IMG/VR virus record: IMGVR_UViG_3300033463_000086
Coordinates: 1 to 64,000 of that record
Length of the DNA stretch: 64,000 bases
Origin: a virus
Taxonomy: Duplodnaviria; Caudoviricetes
Direction: 5' to 3' (one strand)
Positions 16,024 to 58,512 of this stretch are shown here, piece by piece. Under the pieces are notes generated by a model that was given only the letters and a program-made list of their open reading frames with translations, did no database searches and had not been told where the DNA came from. How positions within the stretch are numbered: the first letter of the stretch is position 1; each line of letters begins with the position of its first letter. A program made the position numbers and the translations under genes.

Positions 16024-17388
16024 TTATGAATGTTTGATTTCGCCCATTTCTTCAAGGTCAGCCCAAGAAGCACCGGGTTTGCCTAAGTCAGCTTCAACGG
16101 CAATAGGATAAACAATCCATGACCATTCTTTTCTGACCTCGGCTTGACTTTCGATGTAAAGGTCGCAGATTGTCTGATACTCGTTAGGAACAATATCCAT
16201 AACGGCTGAATCGTGAATCTGCCCGATAATAAGTGATTTGAGTTTGTACTTGATGAACTTGCGCTGAAGGTGAATCAGTGTGTTAAGCAGTACATGGAAA
16301 GCCGAACCCTGAACTACGGTGTTGATAGCCTGTGTTTTAGCCATCTTCATCGTAACCCTGAATCCTGTAGGGTAGTCAAGATAACCCTGCTTCTTGTATA
16401 GCTCCCACTGCTTTTCCTTCCATTCACCGTAGAACTTGAACAGGTCAAACCAGAACCATTCGTATTCCTTTTGAGTGTGGGTCAGCATATCGTCAAACGT
16501 ATTGATTCCACGCTGTTTAAGGTGTTCGAGGATTGGCTGTCCTGTTCCTGTGTTCGGGTTGTCCTCTGTAACGAAGTCCCAAAGGTTACGCGCCATTGAT
16601 TCAAACCCTGCACCGTAAAACCCTGCAAAGACGAATCTGCCTTTAACGGATTTACGTAGAGCTTTGCACATTTCGTTGTCTTGGAGCATGTAATAGTGCT
16701 TTTCGACCTCACTGTGCATATCGGCGTTCGGGTCTGACAGGAAACGTAACATATTCGGGTCATGGTGAATCGAGCAACCACAGGAAACCTCATTGGCACG
16801 TAAGTCAAGTTCCACCAAGCATCTGTCTTTAGAGCGAGGTAAGAAACCTGTACGAACAATGTGTTTCTGGAAGTCGTTGTTCTTAGGCATCTGTTGTAGG
16901 TTCGGGTTGACACAGCTTGAGCGATAGGTACGTACTGTATGAAGCATAAACTCAGGGTGGATAAAACCGTTCTCATCCACTTCCTGAATAGACTTGCTGA
17001 TAATGCTCTGCCACAGGATTTTGAGTTGGCTTCGCTTCAAGAGCAGACTTGATTCCTCATAAGGCAGTTTTTCAATAACCGACTTGTCTACGGAATCATT
17101 ACCTTTCTCTGTCTTGCGGAACTTATCAAAACCACTGGCTTGCAGTACGTTACGGATTTGTGAAGAGCTGTCAATATCGGCTTTGTAACCGTACTTGCTC
17201 AACCATAACTGCCCCAATTTAGTCTCATTAAGAAACTTATCTTTGAGGTTATCGCACTCTTTGATAATCGTTTCCCTCTGAGATTGAAGGTAAGGAACGT
17301 CAATATACATGCCGTTATTGCTGACCTGTGTAAGAACGTCCTCACCTTGCATCAGGAGCTTAAATGCCTCTGGTGTACGTGGAATCAT
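16024..17388 (-). CDS. polA: Family A DNA polymerase, polymerase domain
   Basis: RSSCVNPNLQQMP, motif A ELDLRANEV, motif B RKSVKGRFVFAGFYG, AINTVVQGSA, motif C QIHDS. Confidence 0.92.
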   Translation of the reverse strand: MIPRTPEAFKLLMQGEDVLTQVSNNGMYIDVPYLQSQRETIIKECDNLKDKFLNETKLGQLWLSKYGYKADIDSSSQIRNVLQASGFDKFRKTEKGNDSVDKSVIEKLPYEESSLLLKRSQLKILWQSIISKSIQEVDENGFIHPEFMLHTVRTYRSSCVNPNLQQMPKNNDFQKHIVRTGFLPRSKDRCLVELDLRANEVSCGCSIHHDPNMLRFLSDPNADMHSEVEKHYYMLQDNEMCKALRKSVKGRFVFAGFYGAGFESMARNLWDFVTEDNPNTGTGQPILEHLKQRGINTFDDMLTHTQKEYEWFWFDLFKFYGEWKEKQWELYKKQGYLDYPTGFRVTMKMAKTQAINTVVQGSAFHVLLNTLIHLQRKFIKYKLKSLIIGQIHDSAVMDIVPNEYQTICDLYIESQAEVRKEWSWIVYPIAVEADLGKPGASWADLEEMGEIKHS

Positions 17389-17561
17389 TTATACCTCTCA
17401 GTTCCGTATGGTGGTCTGACAATCGGAATAGTTACCTGATGAAGAATCTCACCGTACTTGTCTATAATTGCTTCGGCATACTCAGGTTGTCGTTCGGTTT
17501 CCCTTACAGCATCACAAAGTATGCTAAAAGCCTCTCCAAAGTCTACTACCTCGATTGTCAT
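17385..17561 (-). CDS. Small 58-aa ORF between the two polymerase halves (below the ORF-track cut-off)
   Basis: Hand translation gives MTIEVVDFGEAFSILCDAVRETERQPEYAEAIIDKYGEILHQVTIPIVRPPYGTERYK; ATGA overlaps at both ends. Confidence 0.7.
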   Translation of the reverse strand: MTIEVVDFGEAFSILCDAVRETERQPEYAEAIIDKYGEILHQVTIPIVRPPYGTERYK

Positions 17562-18784
17562 TCTTCAATCTCCGGGAATGTTTCGTAGAAGTGTTTAAGT
17601 TGGTCAAGAAGTACGATTGCAGTGCGGTACTCAACCAAAGAATCTATTGCATTATAGGTCAGCAATATCCTCTTCGGTATGCGATGAATTGTGTTGATTG
17701 CATAAGTGCCGTACTGTTTAATATCTTTGTCGCTGGGTTTCAATTCAGCTTCAACGTTAGCGTTCCAAACCGTAGTACCAATGAAGATAGGTGCTAAGAA
17801 CTTAATTGACAGACCGCCCATATCTCTGTTATCCAAGGCATGAGCAAGAAGCATGGTGTCGATATTCAGCAGAGCCGGATTCGTACCAAGTTTCACAATA
17901 CTCCAAAGCCTCTCGAAGTGTGAGTTGTGTGCAATTTTTAGAATGTGTGTCGTTCTGAGCCACTCCGTAAATTTTGGAATCGTATTAGAATCCAACATAA
18001 AGGCGTAACTCAAATCACTGTTCTCGCAAATAGACACAGACCACAGCTTCGAGTTATGGTTGTAGGGGCGTAAGCAGTTTGTCTCATAGTCGAAAGCACT
18101 CATACGGCGTTTTGGATTCTTTATCATTTCGTCCATAACGCTGACAGCATCCGAATCCGTAAGAATCTTGACGCACTCGGTTTCTTCCTTCCAAATGCGC
18201 CGAGGTTCTTTCAGGCTGTCAAGGGCGATTTTAATATCTCGTTTAATGAGCAAATCGTCTATACTGTCCGGTCTGTTGCCTTTCACGTTAGAGTGTGGAG
18301 TAAAAGTTGACATGATGTTACACTCAAACTCCCTGCTGTTGTGGAGCAAACCGTGAACAGCTTGACAGGATGCGTCTTTTTCGACAACTCTGCTGAACAG
18401 TACCTTTGCAGACAAATCACCGAAAGCTATGATAAGGTTTGGTTTGAGCTTCTTGATTGTCTGTTTCAGGTAAGGAAAACAGCATTGTGCCTGTGTAGCC
18501 GTAATTGTGTTTCCGTAGCAAGCCACCGTTGATGTAACCCAGCAATCCAAGGAGATGTCAACACCGTAAGAGGCTAACACGTCCTTAATCCAACTGAACC
18601 TGTCCCCAATAGCATACGTCTTGCTTGTCTGCTGAATCGGGTCTTGTTTTTCAAGTAGGATAAGGATGCGTTTCTTTCCCTCACCGTATAACATCAGCTT
18701 GGAGTTCTTGATTAGGTGGCATGACGCACAGTTAGGCTCGTCATACTCAACCCTGCTCATAGATGCTGGCATTACAATTTTCAT
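17558..18784 (-). CDS. UDG-like domain plus 3'-5' proofreading exonuclease (N-terminal part of the split PolA)
   Basis: N-terminal CASCHL, VTSTVAC and KPNLIIAFG (family-4 UDG-like); C-terminal Exo I FDYET, Exo II HNSHFE, Exo III YNAIDS. Confidence 0.85.
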   Translation of the reverse strand: MKIVMPASMSRVEYDEPNCASCHLIKNSKLMLYGEGKKRILILLEKQDPIQQTSKTYAIGDRFSWIKDVLASYGVDISLDCWVTSTVACYGNTITATQAQCCFPYLKQTIKKLKPNLIIAFGDLSAKVLFSRVVEKDASCQAVHGLLHNSREFECNIMSTFTPHSNVKGNRPDSIDDLLIKRDIKIALDSLKEPRRIWKEETECVKILTDSDAVSVMDEMIKNPKRRMSAFDYETNCLRPYNHNSKLWSVSICENSDLSYAFMLDSNTIPKFTEWLRTTHILKIAHNSHFERLWSIVKLGTNPALLNIDTMLLAHALDNRDMGGLSIKFLAPIFIGTTVWNANVEAELKPSDKDIKQYGTYAINTIHRIPKRILLTYNAIDSLVEYRTAIVLLDQLKHFYETFPEIEE

Positions 18785-24377: not shown

Positions 24378-25650
24378 TGATATTCTCCTGTTTGATTAGA
24401 CGGTCGATTGCTCTTATTACACGCTCTGATGTAATGTTTCTGGTGCATGAGAACTTTGTCGTTTCAAGTGCATCTCGTTCCTGTAGAAGCATGTTGCGCT
24501 CTTCCATCGTTGGTGCTTCGTAGATTTTCTTTGTAAGCTCGAAGACCTTTTTATCGACACGAGGACACCAAAGCCAAGCACTATGCCAGAAAGGAATCGT
24601 CATATCGCCCCAACAGTCTTTACACGGATTTTCTTCATTGAAAACACGGTAAGGAGTGTAGAACTCATTTTTAGGTGCTGTGAATCCTGAAATCATAACA
24701 ACAGGTTTCTCACACGCCCAAGCAAGCCAAGACAGACCTGAAGTCATACCGATAAAGAACTCAGCACCTCTTATCTGATTGACACGATGCTGTAAGGTAT
24801 AATCACCAGTCCAGTCAATAGCTTCATGTGGAGCTTTCTGATATGAACCCGGCAGACCAACGATGTTTGTTTTGTCAATGCACATCACGTCAAATCCAAG
24901 TTCGTTCAGGTGTTTTATCACGTCAGACCACCCATACGGATTCCACCACAGCTTGCATCCTTTACTGCCTGAGAAACCGATACAGACATAAGGACGGTCT
25001 GTTTCAATCTGTTTGGTAGCTTTCAGGATAGGCGGTTTAGGTTCGATATTGTTCGGCAGTCCCAATATGTTAGCCGCTAAACGATTCAAACCATGCTGTT
25101 GATAAGGAAGTTTACCCCATAGCGGCTCAACGTCCTTATCGAAGAAGATGCCGATAAAATACGTTGCGTATATGGGTATCTCGGACAGCATTGATTCGTC
25201 AGACACCATTGTTATCTCAGGATAATGTGGCGCAAACAACTCCACGAACCAAGGCTGTGCAAATACAATCGGCTTGCATTTGTGCTTTTCGATGAACGCG
25301 AGTATCTGCGAGAAGTGGGCAATACAATCACCCAGCGTTTTATGGGCGATTCTGAACCTGACGTACCTGTCCTTGCAATCGAATGTGGTGGAGAAAACAT
25401 TGTGGGACTTCGTGTTGAGAGCCACAATCTTCCACTTCACATAATATTTGGTTGGGGTGGCGAAGTAAGCACCGGGGGCAAGCTCTACATGATATAAGAG
25501 GTCCCCTGTGTCTTCATTGAAAAAGCTGACAGACCAAGTACCTTCAACATCCTTTGGTGTTTTTACCTCAGCCCCATAATTGAAACTGAACTGGATTCCG
25601 GTAACAGGGTCTTTCAACAGTTTCACATCATCTTCAAACTGTTCCATCAA
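24352..25650 (-). CDS. Autotransporter O-heptosyltransferase family (Aah/TibC/BAHT-like) glycosyltransferase
   Basis: GT-B motifs FIGMTSGLSWLAWACEKPVVMISGFT and four C-terminal Cys (CKDC, WCP, FSCT) matching the Fe-binding pattern of TibC. Confidence 0.85.
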   Translation of the reverse strand: MMEQFEDDVKLLKDPVTGIQFSFNYGAEVKTPKDVEGTWSVSFFNEDTGDLLYHVELAPGAYFATPTKYYVKWKIVALNTKSHNVFSTTFDCKDRYVRFRIAHKTLGDCIAHFSQILAFIEKHKCKPIVFAQPWFVELFAPHYPEITMVSDESMLSEIPIYATYFIGIFFDKDVEPLWGKLPYQQHGLNRLAANILGLPNNIEPKPPILKATKQIETDRPYVCIGFSGSKGCKLWWNPYGWSDVIKHLNELGFDVMCIDKTNIVGLPGSYQKAPHEAIDWTGDYTLQHRVNQIRGAEFFIGMTSGLSWLAWACEKPVVMISGFTAPKNEFYTPYRVFNEENPCKDCWGDMTIPFWHSAWLWCPRVDKKVFELTKKIYEAPTMEERNMLLQERDALETTKFSCTRNITSERVIRAIDRLIKQENINVPSKPLA

Positions 25651-26588
25651 TTTAACAGCTCCTTAATCTCGGCAAGTTCTTTTCTACCGTCCTTTGTTTT
25701 CAGGAGGTCATTCAGGTCTTTTCCATGCGACCAATGAATACGGTAGACTTCTGTACGGTGTGAGAGTTGGTTTACGAGCTGATGTGCCGCAGATTCACCA
25801 GCCGAATCCATATCGTAGGCAACGTAGACCTTACCGAATGTAGCCAACTCGTTTATTTGTTCTCTTGTGAAACAGCAACCGTGAGTATGAACAGCACCGT
25901 CACCAACAGACATGGCATCGTAGGCGGCTTCCGTAACGATAACAGTATCAGCCGGAACATTATCAATACCCCACAGGAACGACTTGCATGGTATCAACTC
26001 TTCGTATTCGCAGGCGGTTATGTACTGTTTCTTGACGTAACTGCCACACTGAAACGAAACAAGCTGACCCTGCAAGTAATTCGGTATTACAATGCAGTTG
26101 GCGTACTTGTTTGAATACCGCTGTTCCTTGACCGTCTTGTAGTATGTGAGGTACTGGTCTGCTATGCCTGTTGAACTGAGGTGGTACTTCCTGATTACAT
26201 CGTCAGCACAATCAGGGAACCGCTTCATCAGGTACTCATAAGCACGAAGAAGCATAGCACCATTCCCCGGCAGTACAACTTCTTTAGGACGCAACGAAAT
26301 CTCCTTCATATCCTGTTTGTCAATATTCTTGAACAAACCATGAAGGATGTGCCTTGTTTCAGTTCGTTTCGTACCGAGCAAGTTGGAAAAGACTGCTACG
26401 GTGGAATGGTAGCCGCACTTGTAACAGTTGCAGTAACCTTCTTCCAAATTGATACCAAGATGAAAGTTCGTATCACCAGACATGCAGAATGGGCAACAAA
26501 TCTGAACCCATCCACGCCGACAGTGATGATTGCCTTCAAGTCGGTAGTCAATATGGTTATCCTCTAAAAAATCAATCACTCGGCTCAA
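25647..26588 (-). CDS. dnaG: DNA primase (zinc finger + TOPRIM)
   Basis: CCPFC...H...CYKCG, IVTEAAYDA, AYDMDSAG, KDLND. Confidence 0.85.
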   Translation of the reverse strand: MSRVIDFLEDNHIDYRLEGNHHCRRGWVQICCPFCMSGDTNFHLGINLEEGYCNCYKCGYHSTVAVFSNLLGTKRTETRHILHGLFKNIDKQDMKEISLRPKEVVLPGNGAMLLRAYEYLMKRFPDCADDVIRKYHLSSTGIADQYLTYYKTVKEQRYSNKYANCIVIPNYLQGQLVSFQCGSYVKKQYITACEYEELIPCKSFLWGIDNVPADTVIVTEAAYDAMSVGDGAVHTHGCCFTREQINELATFGKVYVAYDMDSAGESAAHQLVNQLSHRTEVYRIHWSHGKDLNDLLKTKDGRKELAEIKELLN

Positions 26589-39507: not shown

Positions 39508-39608
39508 TATAATTGCTAATAAACCTACACAACTTGCTATAAATCGTGTAAGATAATGAGCGTTTTGGCATGGTTTTGTAAGTGTTTGATTACCAATACG
39601 TTATAACT

Positions 39609-39631
39609 TTGTAGTGCGTATATGGTAAATA
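39609..39631 (+). repeat. Left copy of a 23-bp long-range inverted repeat
   Basis: TTGTAGTGCGTATATGGTAAATA is the exact reverse complement of 56581..56603. Confidence 0.9.
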
Positions 39632-39718
39632 TATAGGGAAACAGGTAACAATAACTTTGATATTATCATTGTTATAGTTTGGTGTTACTCTATTCTATTT
39701 GATTTATTTTTTCTATTT

Positions 39719-42700
39719 TTAATTCTCTTGTGTACGTGTGTATGTGCGCGTATCTATATTATACTTGGGTTCGTAGTATTGGCAATCATCCTCATGGGTT
39801 TGGTCATAAAGACAATACCAATACATTTCATCGCATTCGTAACCGTCTTTATCAATGTAATGACGGCGACAGTCAACACGATTCTTACATTTGAAGCAGG
39901 TTTCCAGTTTCATAAGGGCTTGACCTCGGACGGATTTGGTTTAGACGGCTTAACTAATTTTAACGCGATTTAAGACAAGGTAAACGACCGACCCGATAAA
40001 GATATAGGGTAACACTAAAACCGCGCTTAAAACGCCCTAAAACCGCCTTAAAAACGATTTACAAGTAGCATCGTAAAGTCGATACTATTTCAATTTGATT
40101 TTCGACTGGTTAAAGGCTATGAAGGAATCAATATCACATCCTCCAATCACAGCCTTTATGACTTCCTTCTCAAAATCAGAAAGCACGTCATAATTAACAG
40201 AACCGTCATTGTAAAATTTATACCTCGCTCTTAATGCAAACAGTTTGAGTATCTGTTTTTTATGCATTTGGTTTTCAGATACATTTAGATTGGAGTTTAC
40301 ATACATCAATGCAAGGATATAGTCAAGTACCGATGCATTTCCGTACTTTATCCTCTCAAACGTTATGAGAAATTGGTCGTGTGTCATTGATAAGCATCCC
40401 TCTTACCTTCTGCAAGTTCAGCTATGAAAGTCTGCCTACTGGTCTCGAAGGTAATGTTATGTTTTCTGAGTGGTGCAAGACATGACGTATCGCAGTCTTG
40501 ATAAATAAATGTAAATGGGTGGTGCTGGATTGTATTTATGAAGCGTACAGGTAACGACATTCTCATAGGGCAGTAATCCCAATATGACCTTAGAGAACGA
40601 CAGGTTGCCTCATATAGTTGGTCTGATTTGCCCATACTTTCTCTTGTAATCAGCCCACGCAAATCATTTATGTCGTGCATCGTATTTGCCATATAAAATA
40701 GCAGGTCGTTTAGGTCCATCATCCTAAAGTTGAAAATGAAAATAGGCGGACAGTCCTCAATATCACATGTAAAAATGTCTATTGCGTTAAATTCATTAAG
40801 GTCAAAACTTGTTCTGCCATAATGCTTGAAGGTAACATAAACCTTATCCGCCTCAACAGCATTACCTTGGTTTTGACATGCCCTTGCGAAACATGGTCCG
40901 GCTTTTATGGAGATTGACCTGAATGGGCCACGAAGCAACGATGCAATCTCAGTGTTATCGTTGATTATCATTGTTATCTCCTTATTCGTTAGTGCATGTG
41001 AAGTTAATTAGTGTACTTGCGTCATCCCTGTTGTACTCTTCGTTGGCGACCATATTCTGATAGATACGGCTCCATTCAGAATACGAGTAAGGCATGTCGG
41101 TAGTTGTAGCCATAGTTTTCTCAACTTTATAGGTACATGACCTTACCACAGTAGTCCGACCATTAGTACGGTAATCTGAATCGCATAAGAACTGATATTG
41201 ATACAAATGGTCAAATACCATCTTCAAAGACCTGCGAACAGCCCTATAGTATGGGTTATCACGTTGAAGCATGCTATACGTTTTCAGCATATAACAGCGC
41301 AATTTGAACAGGTTATCCTTTTCATAGTACGTATCGGGATTGCCTTGGTCATTCAATAGTTCTCTGAATTGGACCTCTCTTGTGTATTTTACGAACTCAC
41401 GAAGAACGTCATGGACATAAGGCAGGTTCTCATAGCCCTGATAAATGAAAGGGATAGCCGGAGCCTTATTCTTATCAATCACGACGATGAAGGGATATAG
41501 ATGTTCAATACCGTACCACCGCATATTCCATCTCATGCGTGACAGTCTTTTGAATCTTATCCCGAAATCAGGCATTTTTATCGTTGCCTGAACACGACCG
41601 AACTTAAACTTATCTTCAAGTTCAGGTATTAATGTGTTATCAGTCATTGTAAACTCCTTAGTATGTTAGACGTGGACCGAGGTTTGCTGTGATTGGCGCG
41701 GCATTGATTACGAGTGACGGTGATGCATCTTCAAGGTATCTGATGTTTAAGTCCTCGAAGTTACCATCGTCAACACGTACAGACATTAAAGAACGATATG
41801 ACATTGGCTCTCCGTTCAGTGTGTAAAAAGCATTGTCACGAGAGCCAATCCACATTTTATACAGTTTGTCATAAGTGTCCTTGTTGAATACCTCCATCAT
41901 ATTTATCTCTGACCGAAGAAGCCAACAGCATATCTGAAACGACACATCTGAAGCCATTGGTTGATAGTCGTTTAGATAATCTTCAACGATACCGTCATAA
42001 TAAGCCTCTCCGCCGTATCTCAGAATGTCAACGAACATACTTTGAAGGCGAAGATTCCAGTTAGCCCATCTGTCAGCAAGTGAAATGAAAGGTACAGGCT
42101 CTTTGATGCCGGAATGCAACTTACACGCATAGACGTTGTAATTTGATAACGACATTCTACCATGATACGTAACCGCCACGTCCATATCTTCAAGACGAAT
42201 GAATCTGAGTGGCGGCGTGTCTAACATGTCTTTTATCATATCAGATTCCATGTTACCAACCCTCTAATTTGATTGTTTGGTTGAATGTGAAGAAGGTACA
42301 ACTTAACGGTGAACGAAAATATGCAGTCCTATTTTCTACAAGTGCATTTTCATACCACCTAATCTTGTCGATGAAGTGATTCCTGTCAACAAATGAAGCC
42401 ATACGGTGTCGATAACAAAGATATGCAAAGAAACTATCCCTACTCAACCTATGAGAAAGCCGACGGTCGCTTGCAACATCTCTATTCAGTCCGTTATTTT
42501 CGGCATAGAATTTTAGATATTGCAGGATATACCATACACTAAGTTCCTGTCTTGGAAACGATGACTCTAATGCACAGTCGCAAATCTCATTCGTATCGAG
42601 GTTCATAATAGAGAAGAAGTAAATGTAAGTGTTATCATAGAAATCATCACCGTAAAATTTGATTCCGATATTCATTTTTGGAATATAAATTTCGACGTGT

Positions 42701-54957: not shown

Positions 54958-55161
54958 TTAAGAATGTTTTTGTTTCAGTTCATAAAGAAGAATGGTATAT
55001 GCGATAATTTCTTCAATGTACTTATATAGCCAGCGTTTATCGTCATCATCAAGTTCAAATGGAATACGATTTATGAGTAATTTCTTTTTGAGTAGGTGGT
55101 TTTCATGTTTAAGTCGTGTGTTTTCTTGAATGTAGTATTGTTCATTCATAGCTAATCTCAA
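54958..55161 (-). CDS. Hypothetical protein
   Basis: 67 aa overlapping the polymerase-like gene stop. Confidence 0.45.
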   Translation of the reverse strand: MRLAMNEQYYIQENTRLKHENHLLKKKLLINRIPFELDDDDKRWLYKYIEEIIAYTILLYELKQKHS

Positions 55162-56371
55162 TGTTATGGCGTGTAAGATTATGGTAGCAGTTTCTCATAA
55201 GGGTAATGACAGAGCTAACATCGGATTCACGGCAAATACAGGAATCGTGGACAGGAATGATTGGGATATTAATTGATTTGGCAAGTTCAAGGATAGAAAG
55301 CATCAGTTCGGAATCGGCGTTTTGAAGTCTGAGACCAAAGTTATCGTCAGCAAAGAAATGTTCACGGATAGCAGAATGACGTTCAAGCATTTTGGATATA
55401 GCAAGTTCAACATCAAGGTAGTTGTATTTGTTTTTGACGTAAGGATTTTCAAGGATGGCGTTAATGGCTTGATTTCGTGTTGTGCAGTTAAGAGAGATAA
55501 GGATGACCTTCTTGGCAAACTTACGGTCCGGTACGAAGTCATAAGCATCGCCAACAAGTTCTTTTCCGTTAAGGTTATAGGCAAGATTGATATGGAGGCA
55601 GTGGAAATCCGGTTCGACTGTTGCTTCTCCGTTGATTTCTATGGTCTTGCGTTCAGATTTTTTGAGGGTCTGATATGTAAAACCGTTGCCATCAGTACAG
55701 GTAGCATACAATCTTCCACCATGTTCCCAATCCTCAGTATAGACAGATTGAAGGTTGATGCGGAGGCGTTTCTTTTCGTTGTTCTTAATGCAGGTAACAA
55801 GGACAGAATCAGAGTAATAAGCGTTCAGGGATTCAATAGAGTGTTTTTTCGCTAAGATGTTGGTAGGTAAAGAGTTAAAATCAAGTTTAATGTCGTGTTT
55901 GTTCTTTTTAAGGCGTATGGTATTGGTGTGTTTGGTGTTGAAAATGTGTTTATGAGCTTTGTTCTTGGTATTGAAAATGAAAGTTAAGGCTTCAGTGGCA
56001 AAATATCTGGAACGGTAATTGTTTACATTGGAAATCAAGTCTTTATGCCCCTTGATTTCTTTAAGATAGCCACGATTGACAAGGAAATCAAGGACTGCAT
56101 TGAGCTTGCGGACCGAGATTTTCTGTTCCTTTAAGGTGGTTGTCTTGTTGTATGCCGCCCAAACGTGACAATCTCTGGACACGTAGAAGCCAGTCCCGCA
56201 CATTGACGTATAAAGAGCGTTGCACAGAACCATTGTAAGGTACTTCTTGGCGTCAACAGTATTAATTTCCTTGGCAAACCCATCAATAAGTGGTTCGACT
56301 TCCGGGAAATTGAGTTCTGCGATAACGTCAATCGGTTTGGCTTGTCTGATTTGAGTTGTTTTCGTGTCCAT
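55142..56371 (-). CDS. Minimal PolA / T7-RNAP-superfamily polymerase-like protein
   Basis: GGRLY...YQTL...R, motif A VEPDFHCLH, motif B RKFAKK (R-x3-K), LQNADSEL, motif C IPVHDS; no exonuclease domain. Confidence 0.72.
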   Translation of the reverse strand: MDTKTTQIRQAKPIDVIAELNFPEVEPLIDGFAKEINTVDAKKYLTMVLCNALYTSMCGTGFYVSRDCHVWAAYNKTTTLKEQKISVRKLNAVLDFLVNRGYLKEIKGHKDLISNVNNYRSRYFATEALTFIFNTKNKAHKHIFNTKHTNTIRLKKNKHDIKLDFNSLPTNILAKKHSIESLNAYYSDSVLVTCIKNNEKKRLRINLQSVYTEDWEHGGRLYATCTDGNGFTYQTLKKSERKTIEINGEATVEPDFHCLHINLAYNLNGKELVGDAYDFVPDRKFAKKVILISLNCTTRNQAINAILENPYVKNKYNYLDVELAISKMLERHSAIREHFFADDNFGLRLQNADSELMLSILELAKSINIPIIPVHDSCICRESDVSSVITLMRNCYHNLTRHNIEISYE

Positions 56372-56397: not shown

Positions 56398-56520
56398 TAT
56401 AATATAGCACCGTTTCCGAAAAAGTCAAGCGAAAAAGCAACATTTCTACAAACTTTTTTCGATTTTCTTTTTCTTGATTTGGTGTAGTATCTAATATAGC
56501 ACAGAATCTCCAAAAGTCAA
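56398..56520 (-). promoter_or_regulatory. Tandem sigma70-type promoters for the minimal polymerase gene
   Basis: Two copies of TTGACT-N16-TATATT at 56401..56428 and 56493..56520. Confidence 0.8.
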
Positions 56521-56580
56521 ATCTAAATCAAAGAAATAAATTAGAATATTTGATATATAATTGTCGAATCCTACATATAC

Positions 56581-56603
56581 TATTTACCATATACGCACTA
56601 CAA
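56581..56603 (-). repeat. Right copy of the 23-bp long-range inverted repeat
   Basis: TATTTACCATATACGCACTACAA is the reverse complement of 39609..39631. Confidence 0.9.
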
Positions 56604-56815
56604 GTCACAACCTCTTCATTCTCAGCTACTTACAAAAACACCCTCAATTTCTGCTTATTTTACCTATTTACATTGATTTATGAGCAGGTTTTAGACGCAT
56701 AGATATTACCGTTCGGGCATATTTTCGGTTTTCATTCGGTAAAATTTCAAAAATGTTACCGTTCGGGAATAAAAAATAAAAATCGAAAAAAGTTATAAAT
56801 ATGTTACTTTTTTGC

Positions 56816-56843
56816 TTGACTATTTGGTTATTGGTGTTATAAT
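56816..56843 (+). promoter_or_regulatory. Sigma70-type promoter for the packaging/head operon
   Basis: TTGACT-N16-TATAAT with an extended -10 TG. Confidence 0.75.
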
Positions 56844-56845
56844 AT

Positions 56846-57223
56846 GTGTTGACTTACTATAGGAGGACTATGCAAAACATACCAATCGAGTTGAACAGAC
56901 ACTATCGGCATGATGAGATTTCCATACAGTGCGGCGAATCTGCATACACTTTGGCATTAGAAAACCAAGATGATATTCGCAGACGGTTTGTTCGTAATGA
57001 AAACGTCCACTGGTATGTAACTGCAAAGCGTCGTGGGAAAACTACATTGAGTTATATCGTTGTTCATAAGAAAGACATAACAACTTCTCAGAATGCAGCG
57101 AAGCGTACTATCTTTATGAGTTATGAAGAAGCACGTGAAATTGCTAACGAACTTATGCACTCTGAAATGTTTTATGCGGTAAATATTGTCGAATGCTATG
57201 ACAGGGTGGGTGTATGCCTCTAA
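56846..57223 (+). CDS. Hypothetical protein upstream of TerL
   Basis: 125 aa; likely start ATG 56870 after AGGAGG; overlaps the terL start. Confidence 0.6.
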   Translation: MLTYYRRTMQNIPIELNRHYRHDEISIQCGESAYTLALENQDDIRRRFVRNENVHWYVTAKRRGKTTLSYIVVHKKDITTSQNAAKRTIFMSYEEAREIANELMHSEMFYAVNIVECYDRVGVCL

Positions 57224-58512
57224 AACTGACAGAAAAACAAAAATATGGCATGAAATTGCTGAATGACCCTAAATACACGAGAATTGCGTTTACTGGTGGT
57301 TCTCGTGCTGGTAAGTCTGTTGCATTTATGGAATTTCTGATGCAGAGAGCATTTCAATTCCCCGGTTCCAGACAACTCATATGCCGCAGAGCCTTGGTTG
57401 ATGCAAGACGAGCTATTTGGGAAGACACCTTGAAGAAATACTTGACGGACCAGATACCGGAATCAGAATATACGTTAATGAAATCTGAAATGAGAGTGGT
57501 ATTCAAGAATGGGTCCACGATTGAGTTGGGTGGTTTGGATGGCGAGGACCAGTTGCAGAAAATACTTGGTACTGAGTATCTTACAATATGGCTGAATGAA
57601 GCTACTGAAATGAGGTTTGAGGCTGTTACGATTCTGATTACTCGTCTGGCTCAATCCGTAAAGGACACCACAGGCACGTTTACAGGGATAAATAAGCTGA
57701 TTGCTGACGCTAACCCCTCTTCCCCTCGTAATTGGGTCAAAAAGTGGTTTATTGACAACGTAGACCCCACCACAAGACCGCCAAAGAAGCTGAAAGACGC
57801 AGATAAGTTCGTTCACCTGCACTTTACCCCCTACGATAACGCTGAAAACCTACCTCCGGGATATATCGAACAGCTTGACGCACTTCCTTACGAGATGCGT
57901 GAAAGAATGCTCAAAGGTAACTGGATTGGTGGTGAAGGTCAGATATTCAAAGAGTTCAATGCGGAGAAACACTTGATTGCTCCGTTTGAAATACCGAAAA
58001 CATGGGAAAAGGTGAGAGCCATTGACTTTGGTTATAATCACCCTTGCGCCATTTTATATACGGCTTACGATTATTCAACAGATACTATATATGTATATGA
58101 TGAATATAAGGAATCCGGTAAGACGATTGATGAGATTGCAAATTACATGAACAGCGTGGAGCAGAAGAGGCACGAGTTCTATGATTGCACGTGGTCAGAC
58201 CATGACAAATCAGACCGCGCTTTCTTGGCAAAACATGATATTGTCACAAGGGCGGCGAAAAAGTCTGTTCTGGACGGTATCAATGCAGTACGTCAGCGTC
58301 TTTCTGAGATAAGCCCCAAGACACACAAACCTAAACTGCTCATATTCAACAACTTAGATGCCCTGATTGACGAAATGTACAGTTATGAATGGCATCAGTC
58401 CGAATCGGAGGTTATGGATAAGGACGCACCAGTCAAAATCAATGACGACCTTGTTGATACATTGAGATATATTGTTTATGGTAGAGATAAAGACAACGGA
58501 ATTTCATTATAA
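57214..58512 (+). CDS. terL: Terminase large subunit (PBSX-like)
   Basis: Walker A GGSRAGKS, Walker B WLNEA, ADANP, nuclease domain IDFGYNHP...DDLVDTLRY. Confidence 0.95.
   Translation: MPLKLTEKQKYGMKLLNDPKYTRIAFTGGSRAGKSVAFMEFLMQRAFQFPGSRQLICRRALVDARRAIWEDTLKKYLTDQIPESEYTLMKSEMRVVFKNGSTIELGGLDGEDQLQKILGTEYLTIWLNEATEMRFEAVTILITRLAQSVKDTTGTFTGINKLIADANPSSPRNWVKKWFIDNVDPTTRPPKKLKDADKFVHLHFTPYDNAENLPPGYIEQLDALPYEMRERMLKGNWIGGEGQIFKEFNAEKHLIAPFEIPKTWEKVRAIDFGYNHPCAILYTAYDYSTDTIYVYDEYKESGKTIDEIANYMNSVEQKRHEFYDCTWSDHDKSDRAFLAKHDIVTRAAKKSVLDGINAVRQRLSEISPKTHKPKLLIFNNLDALIDEMYSYEWHQSESEVMDKDAPVKINDDLVDTLRYIVYGRDKDNGISL

Follow-up and report, generated by a model that had tools for sequence, protein, structure and literature searches.

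A second, minimal polymerase of the divPolA2/TV-Pol branch and its linked two-copy DNA element in a tailed phage: a possible initiator of replication

Introduction

What function does a second, minimal polymerase serve in a phage which already encodes its own replication enzymes? The question is raised by a stretch of 64,000 nucleotides (positions 1 to 64,000; hereafter the window) of the IMG/VR virus record IMGVR_UViG_3300033463_000086 (Duplodnaviria; Caudoviricetes), which belongs to a complete phage genome of 76,348 bp with terminal repeats. An open reading frame (ORF) located at 55142..56371 codes for a protein of 409 amino acids (aa) plus stop, which an earlier note on this DNA had described as a minimal polymerase that may belong to an undescribed replication or transcription module. 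The ORF list and translation show that this reading frame is real, but that it lies on the minus strand, running from 56371 to 55142, and the strand has been corrected here. On the basis of its modelled fold, the gene product is predicted to be a nucleotidyl transferase with an intact active site, which belongs to the divPolA2/TV-Pol branch within the family-A/T7 RNA polymerase (RNAP) superfamily. The encoded enzyme could be a site-specific initiator polymerase for the initiation of replication, a reading to which we give slightly less than even weight and which is favoured by the fold, the catalytic residues, a winged-helix-like head, strong early promoters and a DNA element linked to the gene.

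A minimal polymerase core with an intact active site

The replicative PolA of the phage is encoded by a split gene pair, comprising a UDG-like/3′-5′ exo protein of 408 aa (17558-18784, minus strand) and a DNA_pol_A protein of 454 aa (16024-17388, minus strand), and a primase is encoded at 25647-26588 (phrog_47; e-value: 1.3e-28). The phage further encodes a DnaB-like helicase, an IstB/DnaC-like ATPase, a clamp loader, a protein binding to single-stranded DNA (SSB), a ligase and a SNF2 helicase, as well as a putative clamp recognised through a weak match. Given the presence of the split PolA, primase, helicase, clamp loader, SSB and ligase, the 409-aa protein represents an extra polymerase, and since the primase and PolA are encoded separately, it is neither the bulk replicase nor the lagging-strand primase. 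The earlier note had likewise counted a PolA and a primase in this phage and had expected a distinct role for the second polymerase, and both points stand.

All five of the palm and finger motifs which the earlier note had quoted are present in the protein, namely GGRLY (starting at residue 218), EPDFHCLH (253), RKFAK (283), LQNADS (349) and VHDS (374). A search of 1.8 billion cluster representatives yielded 3897 relatives when the cut-off was set at E<=1e-3, of which 993 remained at E<=1e-10, with conservation extending over the C-terminal half of the protein. The motifs are nearly invariant among 164 relatives aligned to the core profile. Residues G219, R220, R241, D255 and K287 are found in all 164 members, with E253 and Y277 retained in 163, H260, R283 and N295 in 160 and D275 in 151 of these, and motif C is similarly maintained (H375: 162/162; D376: 161/162; S377: 154/162). 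This near-invariance indicates that the motifs constitute a family signature rather than a chance resemblance.

An AlphaFold2 model of the whole protein, built from a 69-sequence alignment, attained a pLDDT of 91.3. The model, fold searches and residue conservation delimit a minimal family-A/T7-RNAP-type polymerase core at residues 146-409 (55145..55936, minus strand), which comprises the β-hairpin arginine (GGRLY), the motif A aspartate D255, the fingers residues R283, K287 and N295, the LQNADS motif and motif C (H375-D376-S377). Strands 207-212 and 218-223 form the GGRxY hairpin and the helices spanning residues 283-338 the fingers. The top Foldseek matches were exclusively family-A DNA polymerases (e-value: 5.5e-7; probability: 1.0), and structural comparison of residues 145-409 with VIA recovered apicoplast Pol (apPol; Z: 15.1), yeast mitochondrial RNAP (mtRNAP; Z: 14.3), Klenow and T7 RNAP (both Z: 13.7) and Pol nu (Z: 13.4), with N4 RNAPII matching more weakly (Z: 8.6). 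The palm superposes on those of both PolA and T7 RNAP. Membership of the PolA/T7-RNAP superfamily, as earlier proposed, is thus confirmed by the fold (Z: 13.7-15.1; Foldseek probability: 1.0) together with the conserved catalytic residues, and the model displays a palm and fingers of the family-A/T7-RNAP type. As the scores for DNA and RNA polymerases tie, the fold gives no indication of substrate choice. Three active site features do provide a hint. On the basis of motif spacing and textbook numbering, H260 occupies the steric-gate position of Klenow E710, while N295, through the spacing R-x3-K-x7-N, falls at the position of Y766 in PolA and Y639 in T7 RNAP. Motif C reads HDS in T7 RNAP and HDE in PolA, and the HDS of the 409-aa protein, along with H260 and N295, leans towards the use of ribonucleotides.

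The sequence of the protein falls outside the models held in the reference collections. No Pfam family matches the 409-aa protein at E<=10, or any of 69 relatives at E<=0.1, and neither NCBIfam nor PADLOC contains a model for it or its stand-alone relatives. The Pfam DNA_pol_A family (PF00476), by which a canonical family-A polymerase is recognised, thus does not match the protein, unlike the replicative PolA of this phage. Searches of PDB sequences with phmmer and the family profile gave weak winged-helix matches alone and never reached PolA chains, and the matching prokaryotic virus family, phrog_4756 (e-value: 9.6e-51), is annotated as being of 'unknown function'. No exonuclease domain was found in the AlphaFold2 model or by Pfam, in agreement with the initial description of the protein.

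The N-terminal half is basic, as the earlier note had observed, with a pI of 9.5 for residues 1-200 as opposed to 6.1 for residues 201-409. Fold searches delineate a winged-helix-like domain at residues 1-146 (55934..56371, minus strand; pI 9.3). When the whole protein was compared using VIA, residues 20-140 matched MarR, PadR, S19e, Z-beta and MotA (Z: 5.5-6.6), and the domain modelled on its own (pLDDT: 79) retrieved almost only winged-helix proteins (Z: 5-7, none above 7; Foldseek probability: <=0.95; e-values: 0.02-0.1), with the family profile also weakly matching S19e and PadR. The N-terminal domain of the model is therefore probably a winged-helix-like head of a DNA-binding type. Between this domain and the β-hairpin, the region expected to hold the thumb contains only one helix (170-186) and short strands, and the modelled winged-helix domain may take the place of the thumb.

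Relationship to known polymerase families

The family to which the 409-aa protein is assigned by sequence has already been described as divPolA2, with the TV-Pol family representing its wider kin. Barbaviruses and other phages were reported to encode a second PolA that is divergent and was named divPolA2 (Yutin, Tolstoy, Mutz, Wolf, Krupovic and Koonin 2024, Virol J 21:200; PMC11348598). It was first seen in Rheinheimera barbaviruses and is characterized by an active palm, the lack of a thumb or exonuclease, and the presence of an N-terminal domain. The protein matches positions 25514-26500 of MG592441.1, within the coding sequence of the published representative AUR84708.1 of Vibrio phage 1.063.O (residues 82-398; 29% identity; e-value: 6.4e-13), and tblastn comparison against phages recovered 114 Rheinheimera and 121 Vibrio phage records, with many of the latter being ICP1 isolates. 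As it matches both this representative and TV-Pol-like bacterial proteins, the designation 'undescribed' does not hold for the protein. It shares with divPolA2 the active palm, the absence of an exonuclease and a canonical thumb, an N-terminal globular domain, the presence of a regular DNA polymerase elsewhere in the genome, and PolA and mitochondrial or N4 RNAP as structural neighbours. It differs from the published divPolA2 systems in that the regular polymerase is a split PolA rather than a PolB, in that weak but consistent matches identify the N-terminal domain, for which no similarity was reported, as winged-helix-like, and in that the gene occupies a fixed place with a two-copy cis element and an overlapping small ORF, rather than variable neighbourhoods.

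The TV-Pol family was first described as comprising enzymes of mobile elements (Iyer, Abhiman and Aravind 2008, Biol Direct 3:39; PMC2579912). Features in common with it include the invariant arginine of the pre-palm β-hairpin (R220, following G219), two catalytic aspartates in an RRM-like palm (D255 and D376), small helical fingers with an aspartate (D275) and RxxxK (R283 and K287), and a minimal family-A-type core without a nuclease that is distributed among viruses and integrative elements. Three of the four structural hallmarks of TV-Pol are thus observed, the coiled-coil thumb not being evident in the model. The TV-Pol thumb consists of two antiparallel coiled-coil helices, as opposed to the single helix and short strands seen here, although a winged helix has been reported in its place in a Gemmata variant (PMC2579912), and the winged-helix-like N-terminal domain further differs from the all-helical TV-PolN. 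Furthermore, no integrase, resolvase, transposase or D5-like helicase adjoins the polymerase gene in this phage, unlike the TV-Pol genes. The bacterial relatives do display this feature. The family spans 209 genome loci with proteins of 470-620 aa in Alphaproteobacteria, Lentisphaerae and others, of which the integrase-linked alphaproteobacterial proteins match the 409-aa protein with an e-value of 8e-17. Those of Paracoccus, Loktanella and Shimia adjoin tyrosine integrases and restriction genes, fitting the TV-Pol description (PMC2579912), and the bacterial relatives are often the sole replication-type gene in an integrase cassette. The family profile had no match in Microcystis phage Ma-LMM01, which carries one of the founding TV-Pols, such that the protein is connected to the founding members indirectly. 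Since the thumb is not evident and Ma-LMM01 was missed, we regard divPolA2 as the family and TV-Pol as its wider kin.

Three functionally better understood systems provide points of comparison. The primase CcPol-MP, encoded by SCCmec (Bebel et al. 2020, PMC7581432; Rice 2023, PMC10061031), is built on a truncated family-A polymerase of a mobile element which primes de novo using dNTPs, with a small partner encoded downstream and a start site beside the operon. CcPol is, however, Pol I-like in sequence and retains part of the exonuclease domain, as opposed to the 409-aa protein with no Pfam DNA_pol_A match, and its partner MP is an OB-fold SSB, for which the 63-aa product of the ORF downstream of the phage gene is too short. 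With the T7-like RNAPs the protein has in common the palm and fingers fold, the GR-Y hairpin, the R-x3-K helix and the HDS motif C, but its core comprises ~265 residues rather than more than 800 and can be aligned with no more than their palm and fingers, without a specificity loop, intercalating hairpin or RNAP-type N-terminal domain. The discriminating tyrosine is an asparagine here, and the genome contains two candidate recognition sites rather than many promoters. A further function of both T7 RNAP and mitochondrial RNAP is the priming of DNA replication at origins. Plasmid initiators of the Rep/iteron type act at an adjacent origin, and ColE2 Rep is an origin-specific primase. A DNA-binding domain and a chain-starting activity, both predicted here, as well as the location of the gene beside a presumed site, recall these initiators, but the folds are unrelated. 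Identity as a plasmid Rep protein was rejected, with just three weak partial matches among 72,556 plasmid records.

The polymerase gene and its linked cis element

The polymerase gene is the first of a leftward early block and is divergent from a small ORF and the large terminase operon, an arrangement which is maintained in syntenic relatives whose orthologs share 98%, 54-55% and 38% protein identity. No near relative of the region was found among GenBank phages by megablast. Two tandem promoters, as the earlier note had stated, precede the gene on the minus strand. These are located at 56401..56428 (P1; reading from 56428 to 56401), within a block conserved in the relatives L087 and L089, and at 56493..56520 (P2; reading from 56520 to 56493), 92 nt apart from start to start, and both consist of TTGACT-16-TATATT with an extended TG. 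Early and late genes of the phage alike carry such sigma-70-type promoters. The polymerase gene is also compositionally distinct, as G is scarce at its third codon positions (G3: 0.11, compared to ~0.23 in the other genes of the phage), which gives rise to a local GC skew of +0.27. The low G3 is retained in the 54-55% relatives (0.09), but not in the 38% relative.

Upstream of both promoters, ~210 nt from the start codon, lies a bipartite element (56572..56646, minus strand) which reads towards the gene. It consists of box 1, TTTTGTAAGT (56637-56628), and the 23-bp box 2, TTGTAGTGCGTATATGGTAAATA (56603-56581). The consensus spans ~60 bp, with TTTTGTAAGT-n3-TGAT..AA followed, after ~26 nt, by TTGTAGnGCGTWWATGGTAWATA, or in shorthand TTGTAAGT..TGAT for box 1 and ..CGTWWATGGTAWATA for box 2, the core of which is TATA-T-GG. 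A distal, inverted copy (39566..39640, plus strand; box 1: 39574-39583; box 2: 39609-39631) marks the opposite end of the early block on the minus strand, such that the two copies lie 17 kb apart, at both ends of the block, and face inward. The 23-bp inverted repeat of the earlier note is confirmed and perfect (39609-39631 and 56581-56603), and box 2 occurs in these two copies only in the complete 76,348-bp genome.

In relatives, the intergenic region has diverged apart from promoters and the element, which represents its sole other conserved block. The element is located upstream of the sigma-70-type promoter(s), at a distance of 150-215 nt from the start codon, and precedes the gene in five lineages, namely those of the window, L087, L089, L092 (38% identity) and L104 (35% identity), with only a partial element being found in L105, where the homolog shares 32% identity. 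In L104, the polymerase gene follows thioredoxin and MazG genes and faces no terminase gene, and the retention of the element amid these different surroundings ties it to the polymerase gene rather than to the early block. The two-copy layout is also observed in the relative L087/L098, where the boxes 2 lie ~16.4 kb apart (L087:9805-9827 and L098:15719-15741). Both read TTGTAGAGCGTTAATGGTATATA and are mutually identical, but differ from the pair in the window at four positions. This concerted change implies a single genome-specific reader protein or recombination between the copies. The proposed link between the gene and the 23-bp repeat is therefore strengthened, as the element co-occurs with the gene down to 35% identity and its copies co-vary per genome.

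Several further sequence features surround the element. In L092, five TGCTATCT(W)T repeats directly follow box 2 in an iteron-like arrangement (L092:1756-1800). In the window, a direct repeat at 56698-56771, ATTACCGTTCGGG / GTTACCGTTCGGG, comprises two copies 50 bp apart in the interval separating the element from a late promoter (56816-56843), in a stretch which is missing from L087 and L089. Beside the distal copy (39524-39785, minus strand), a promoter (39785-39758; 11/12 matches) and a terminator-like hairpin (39552-39524) would give rise to an RNA of ~230 nt across the complement of both distal boxes.

Aside from the terminase operon, the neighbours of the polymerase gene in the window include small early genes and a conserved ORF of 63 aa (54958..55149, minus strand), whose ATG overlaps the end of the polymerase gene by 8 nt. 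This small ORF is kept in relatives. Its product is 71% identical in L087 and L088, exceeding the 54-55% identity of the polymerase. The polymerase of L089 is just 54-55% identical, and its gene is followed by a comparable ORF of 65 aa. Downstream of the 38% homolog of L092 lies an ORF of 52 aa whose residue pattern is similar. The two genes are likely translationally coupled and the 63-aa product, in which a heptad-like Leu/Lys pattern suggests a helix, may be a cofactor of the polymerase. Of particular value at this locus is the pair of elements co-varying per genome together with this small overlapping ORF.

Possible functions of the second polymerase

Were the 409-aa protein a site-specific initiator polymerase, host RNA polymerase would transcribe its gene first, and strongly, from the two tandem sigma-70-type promoters. 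The winged-helix head would then place the catalytic core on the bipartite ~60-bp element, where the enzyme would start or extend a short nucleic acid chain, which the phage replisome (split PolA, DnaB-like helicase, primase, clamp and clamp loader) would take over. Its part would resemble that of T7 RNA polymerase at the T7 primary origin, or of CcPol-MP/Cch2 beside their own gene. Known or predicted precedents for such an activity exist among its kin and analogs, as the TV-Pols have been predicted from their context to be primase-polymerases which replace prim-pol domains next to D5 helicases (PMC2579912), and the family-A-based primase CcPol-MP prefers a start site adjacent to its operon (PMC7581432). 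Contextual support may also be drawn from proteins of ~930 aa in which a DRT4 (UG15)-type defence reverse transcriptase (RT) is fused to a C-terminal, complete winged-helix plus divPolA2 module (P0018, P0041, P0049, P0057 and P0117; locus L103:250-3060; PADLOC Drt4 e-values: 1e-167 to 1e-176). No such fusion is mentioned for UG15 in the UG/Abi survey. DRT4 makes random single-stranded DNA, and in DRT7 a primase-polymerase is fused to the RT in the position which the module occupies in the DRT4 fusions. A thioredoxin gene adjoins the divPolA2 gene in two distant lineages, being located downstream in L094 (L094:1318-1575) and upstream in L104 (L104:55-354). Thioredoxin is the processivity factor of T7 DNA polymerase.

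The cholera phage ICP1 provides a further comparison. Its replisome is of the T7 type and no RNA polymerase has been predicted for it (PMC9040626), and its theta origin has been placed 'near the 60 kb position' (PMC7145576), with the homolog of the polymerase gene, ORF100.1 of MH310935, situated at 57.9-59.3 kb. The only repeat seen near the ICP1 gene is an unrelated, perfect 99-nt tandem duplication inside ORF97.1, ~575 nt upstream of the homolog (L001:4967-5164; 57173-57370 in ICP1_2011_B), and no element comparable to that of the window was seen there. A HigA/XRE-type gene directly precedes the homolog in both ICP1 and Aeromonas phage 4L372D. The main text of PMC7567579 gives no expression timing for the ICP1 homolog.

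Several observations weigh against a role in initiation. The association of gene and origin in ICP1 is one of proximity only, at a resolution of ~1-2 kb, and the winged-helix assignment derives from many consistent but individually weak matches (Z: <=7). The two copies of the element point towards each other, a geometry other than the simple one of a single bidirectional origin, and the element could be bound by another early protein or simply serve the gene's own promoter as an operator. Cumulative GC skew reaches its minimum at ~53.2 kb rather than at 56.6 kb, so that the element is not singled out as an origin by composition. The skew is dominated by odd local composition, namely that of a repeat gene rich in Ala and of the polymerase gene with its low G content, and is evidence neither for nor against an origin at 56.6 kb. 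Finally, the divPolA2 genes occur in variable neighbourhoods, and roles in repair or as an RNA polymerase have been favoured for them (Yutin et al., PMC11348598). Synthesis of the terminal repeats, which the earlier note had also considered, finds no counterpart in the data, as nothing ties the gene to the terminal repeats of the genome.

The same fold and element may be read in terms of transcription. A specialised single-subunit RNA polymerase would recognise box 2 as a T7-style promoter and produce two convergent transcripts across the early block, which would switch off or run antisense to the early genes, or form a structural RNA, rather than prime replication. The equal structural scores of yeast mtRNAP (Z: 14.3) and T7 RNAP (Z: 13.7) compared to Klenow (Z: 13.7) are compatible with this, as are the HDS form of motif C, which T7 RNAP shares and PolA replaces by HDE, the TATA-T-GG core of the 23-bp box 2 and the inward orientation of both copies over the early block, and the option has been raised by Yutin et al. 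(PMC11348598). Two copies of the element in 76 kb, however, exclude a middle or late transcriptase, the early and late genes have sigma-70-type promoters, and the specificity loop, intercalating hairpin and N-terminal domain of T7 RNAP are absent from the 265-residue core, and we consider such a specialised enzyme unlikely. A general RNA polymerase was rejected as unlikely, since its candidate recognition element occurs in two copies only and sigma-70-type promoters are found elsewhere.

The company kept by the relatives allows for a different reading, in which the protein is a counter-defence or host-takeover enzyme whose product decoys or poisons the host, or in which the gene is a selfish TV-Pol cassette that serves only its own replication. 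The fusion of the module to DRT4 defence reverse transcriptases and the location of bacterial relatives in integrative elements beside restriction-modification (R-M) and Abi genes are in keeping with this, immediate-early expression would suit takeover functions, and the TV-Pols were originally described from mobile elements (PMC2579912). In the phages, however, the gene keeps its position and neighbours in relatives with 98% to as little as 38% identity, there is no adjacent integrase, resolvase or transposase, and the element pair brackets the whole early block instead of the gene alone, such that this explanation appears distinctly improbable.

A similarly low likelihood is attached to a DNA polymerase for repair, gap-filling or lesion bypass, with an odd N-terminal domain for a thumb and with the element as the regulatory region of its own gene. 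Repair has been suggested for divPolA2 (Yutin et al., PMC11348598), and the lack of a proofreading domain, the small fingers module and the replicase already present in the host phages would all be consistent with it. The position as the first and strongest early gene would nevertheless be unusual for a repair enzyme, the regulation of one gene from its promoter leaves unexplained a second, co-varying element 17 kb away, and a replicon function is suggested by the bacterial relatives that are linked to integrases and lack further replication genes in their vicinity. It is least likely of all that the inverted elements are recombination, inversion or boundary sites for some other early protein, with their closeness to the gene merely reflecting the layout of the block, for although they are perfect inverted repeats, identical within a genome, as gene conversion or recombination would also produce, no recombinase was recognised among the scanned ORFs of the early block, where most small ORFs were left unscanned, and the L104 element still precedes a 35%-identical polymerase gene amid different genes.

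Implications for phage replication and the polymerase family

The locus described here provides a concrete candidate DNA target for its polymerase in the form of a conserved, co-varying 60-bp element. We tentatively suggest, at a lower level of confidence than for the initiator role itself, that the polymerase and this element form a self-contained 'polymerase-type initiator' system, in which one enzyme recognises a double-stranded DNA origin and lays the first chain. If this is true, synthesis would start at two inward-facing sites bracketing the early genes, whether for replication or for two defined transcripts, and the system would be distinct from helicase loading by DnaA or Rep, priming by T7 RNAP and protein priming. 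It would probably be common to ICP1 and thousands of integrative elements. The ICP1 homolog adjoins a mapped, but mechanistically unexplained, theta origin in a tractable cholera phage. More broadly, the family is very large, extending across phages, integrative elements and DRT4 defence fusions, with an intact active site and no Pfam or NCBIfam model, and it may lie near the minimal form of the polymerase type that was ancestral to Pol I and the T7 and mitochondrial RNAPs.

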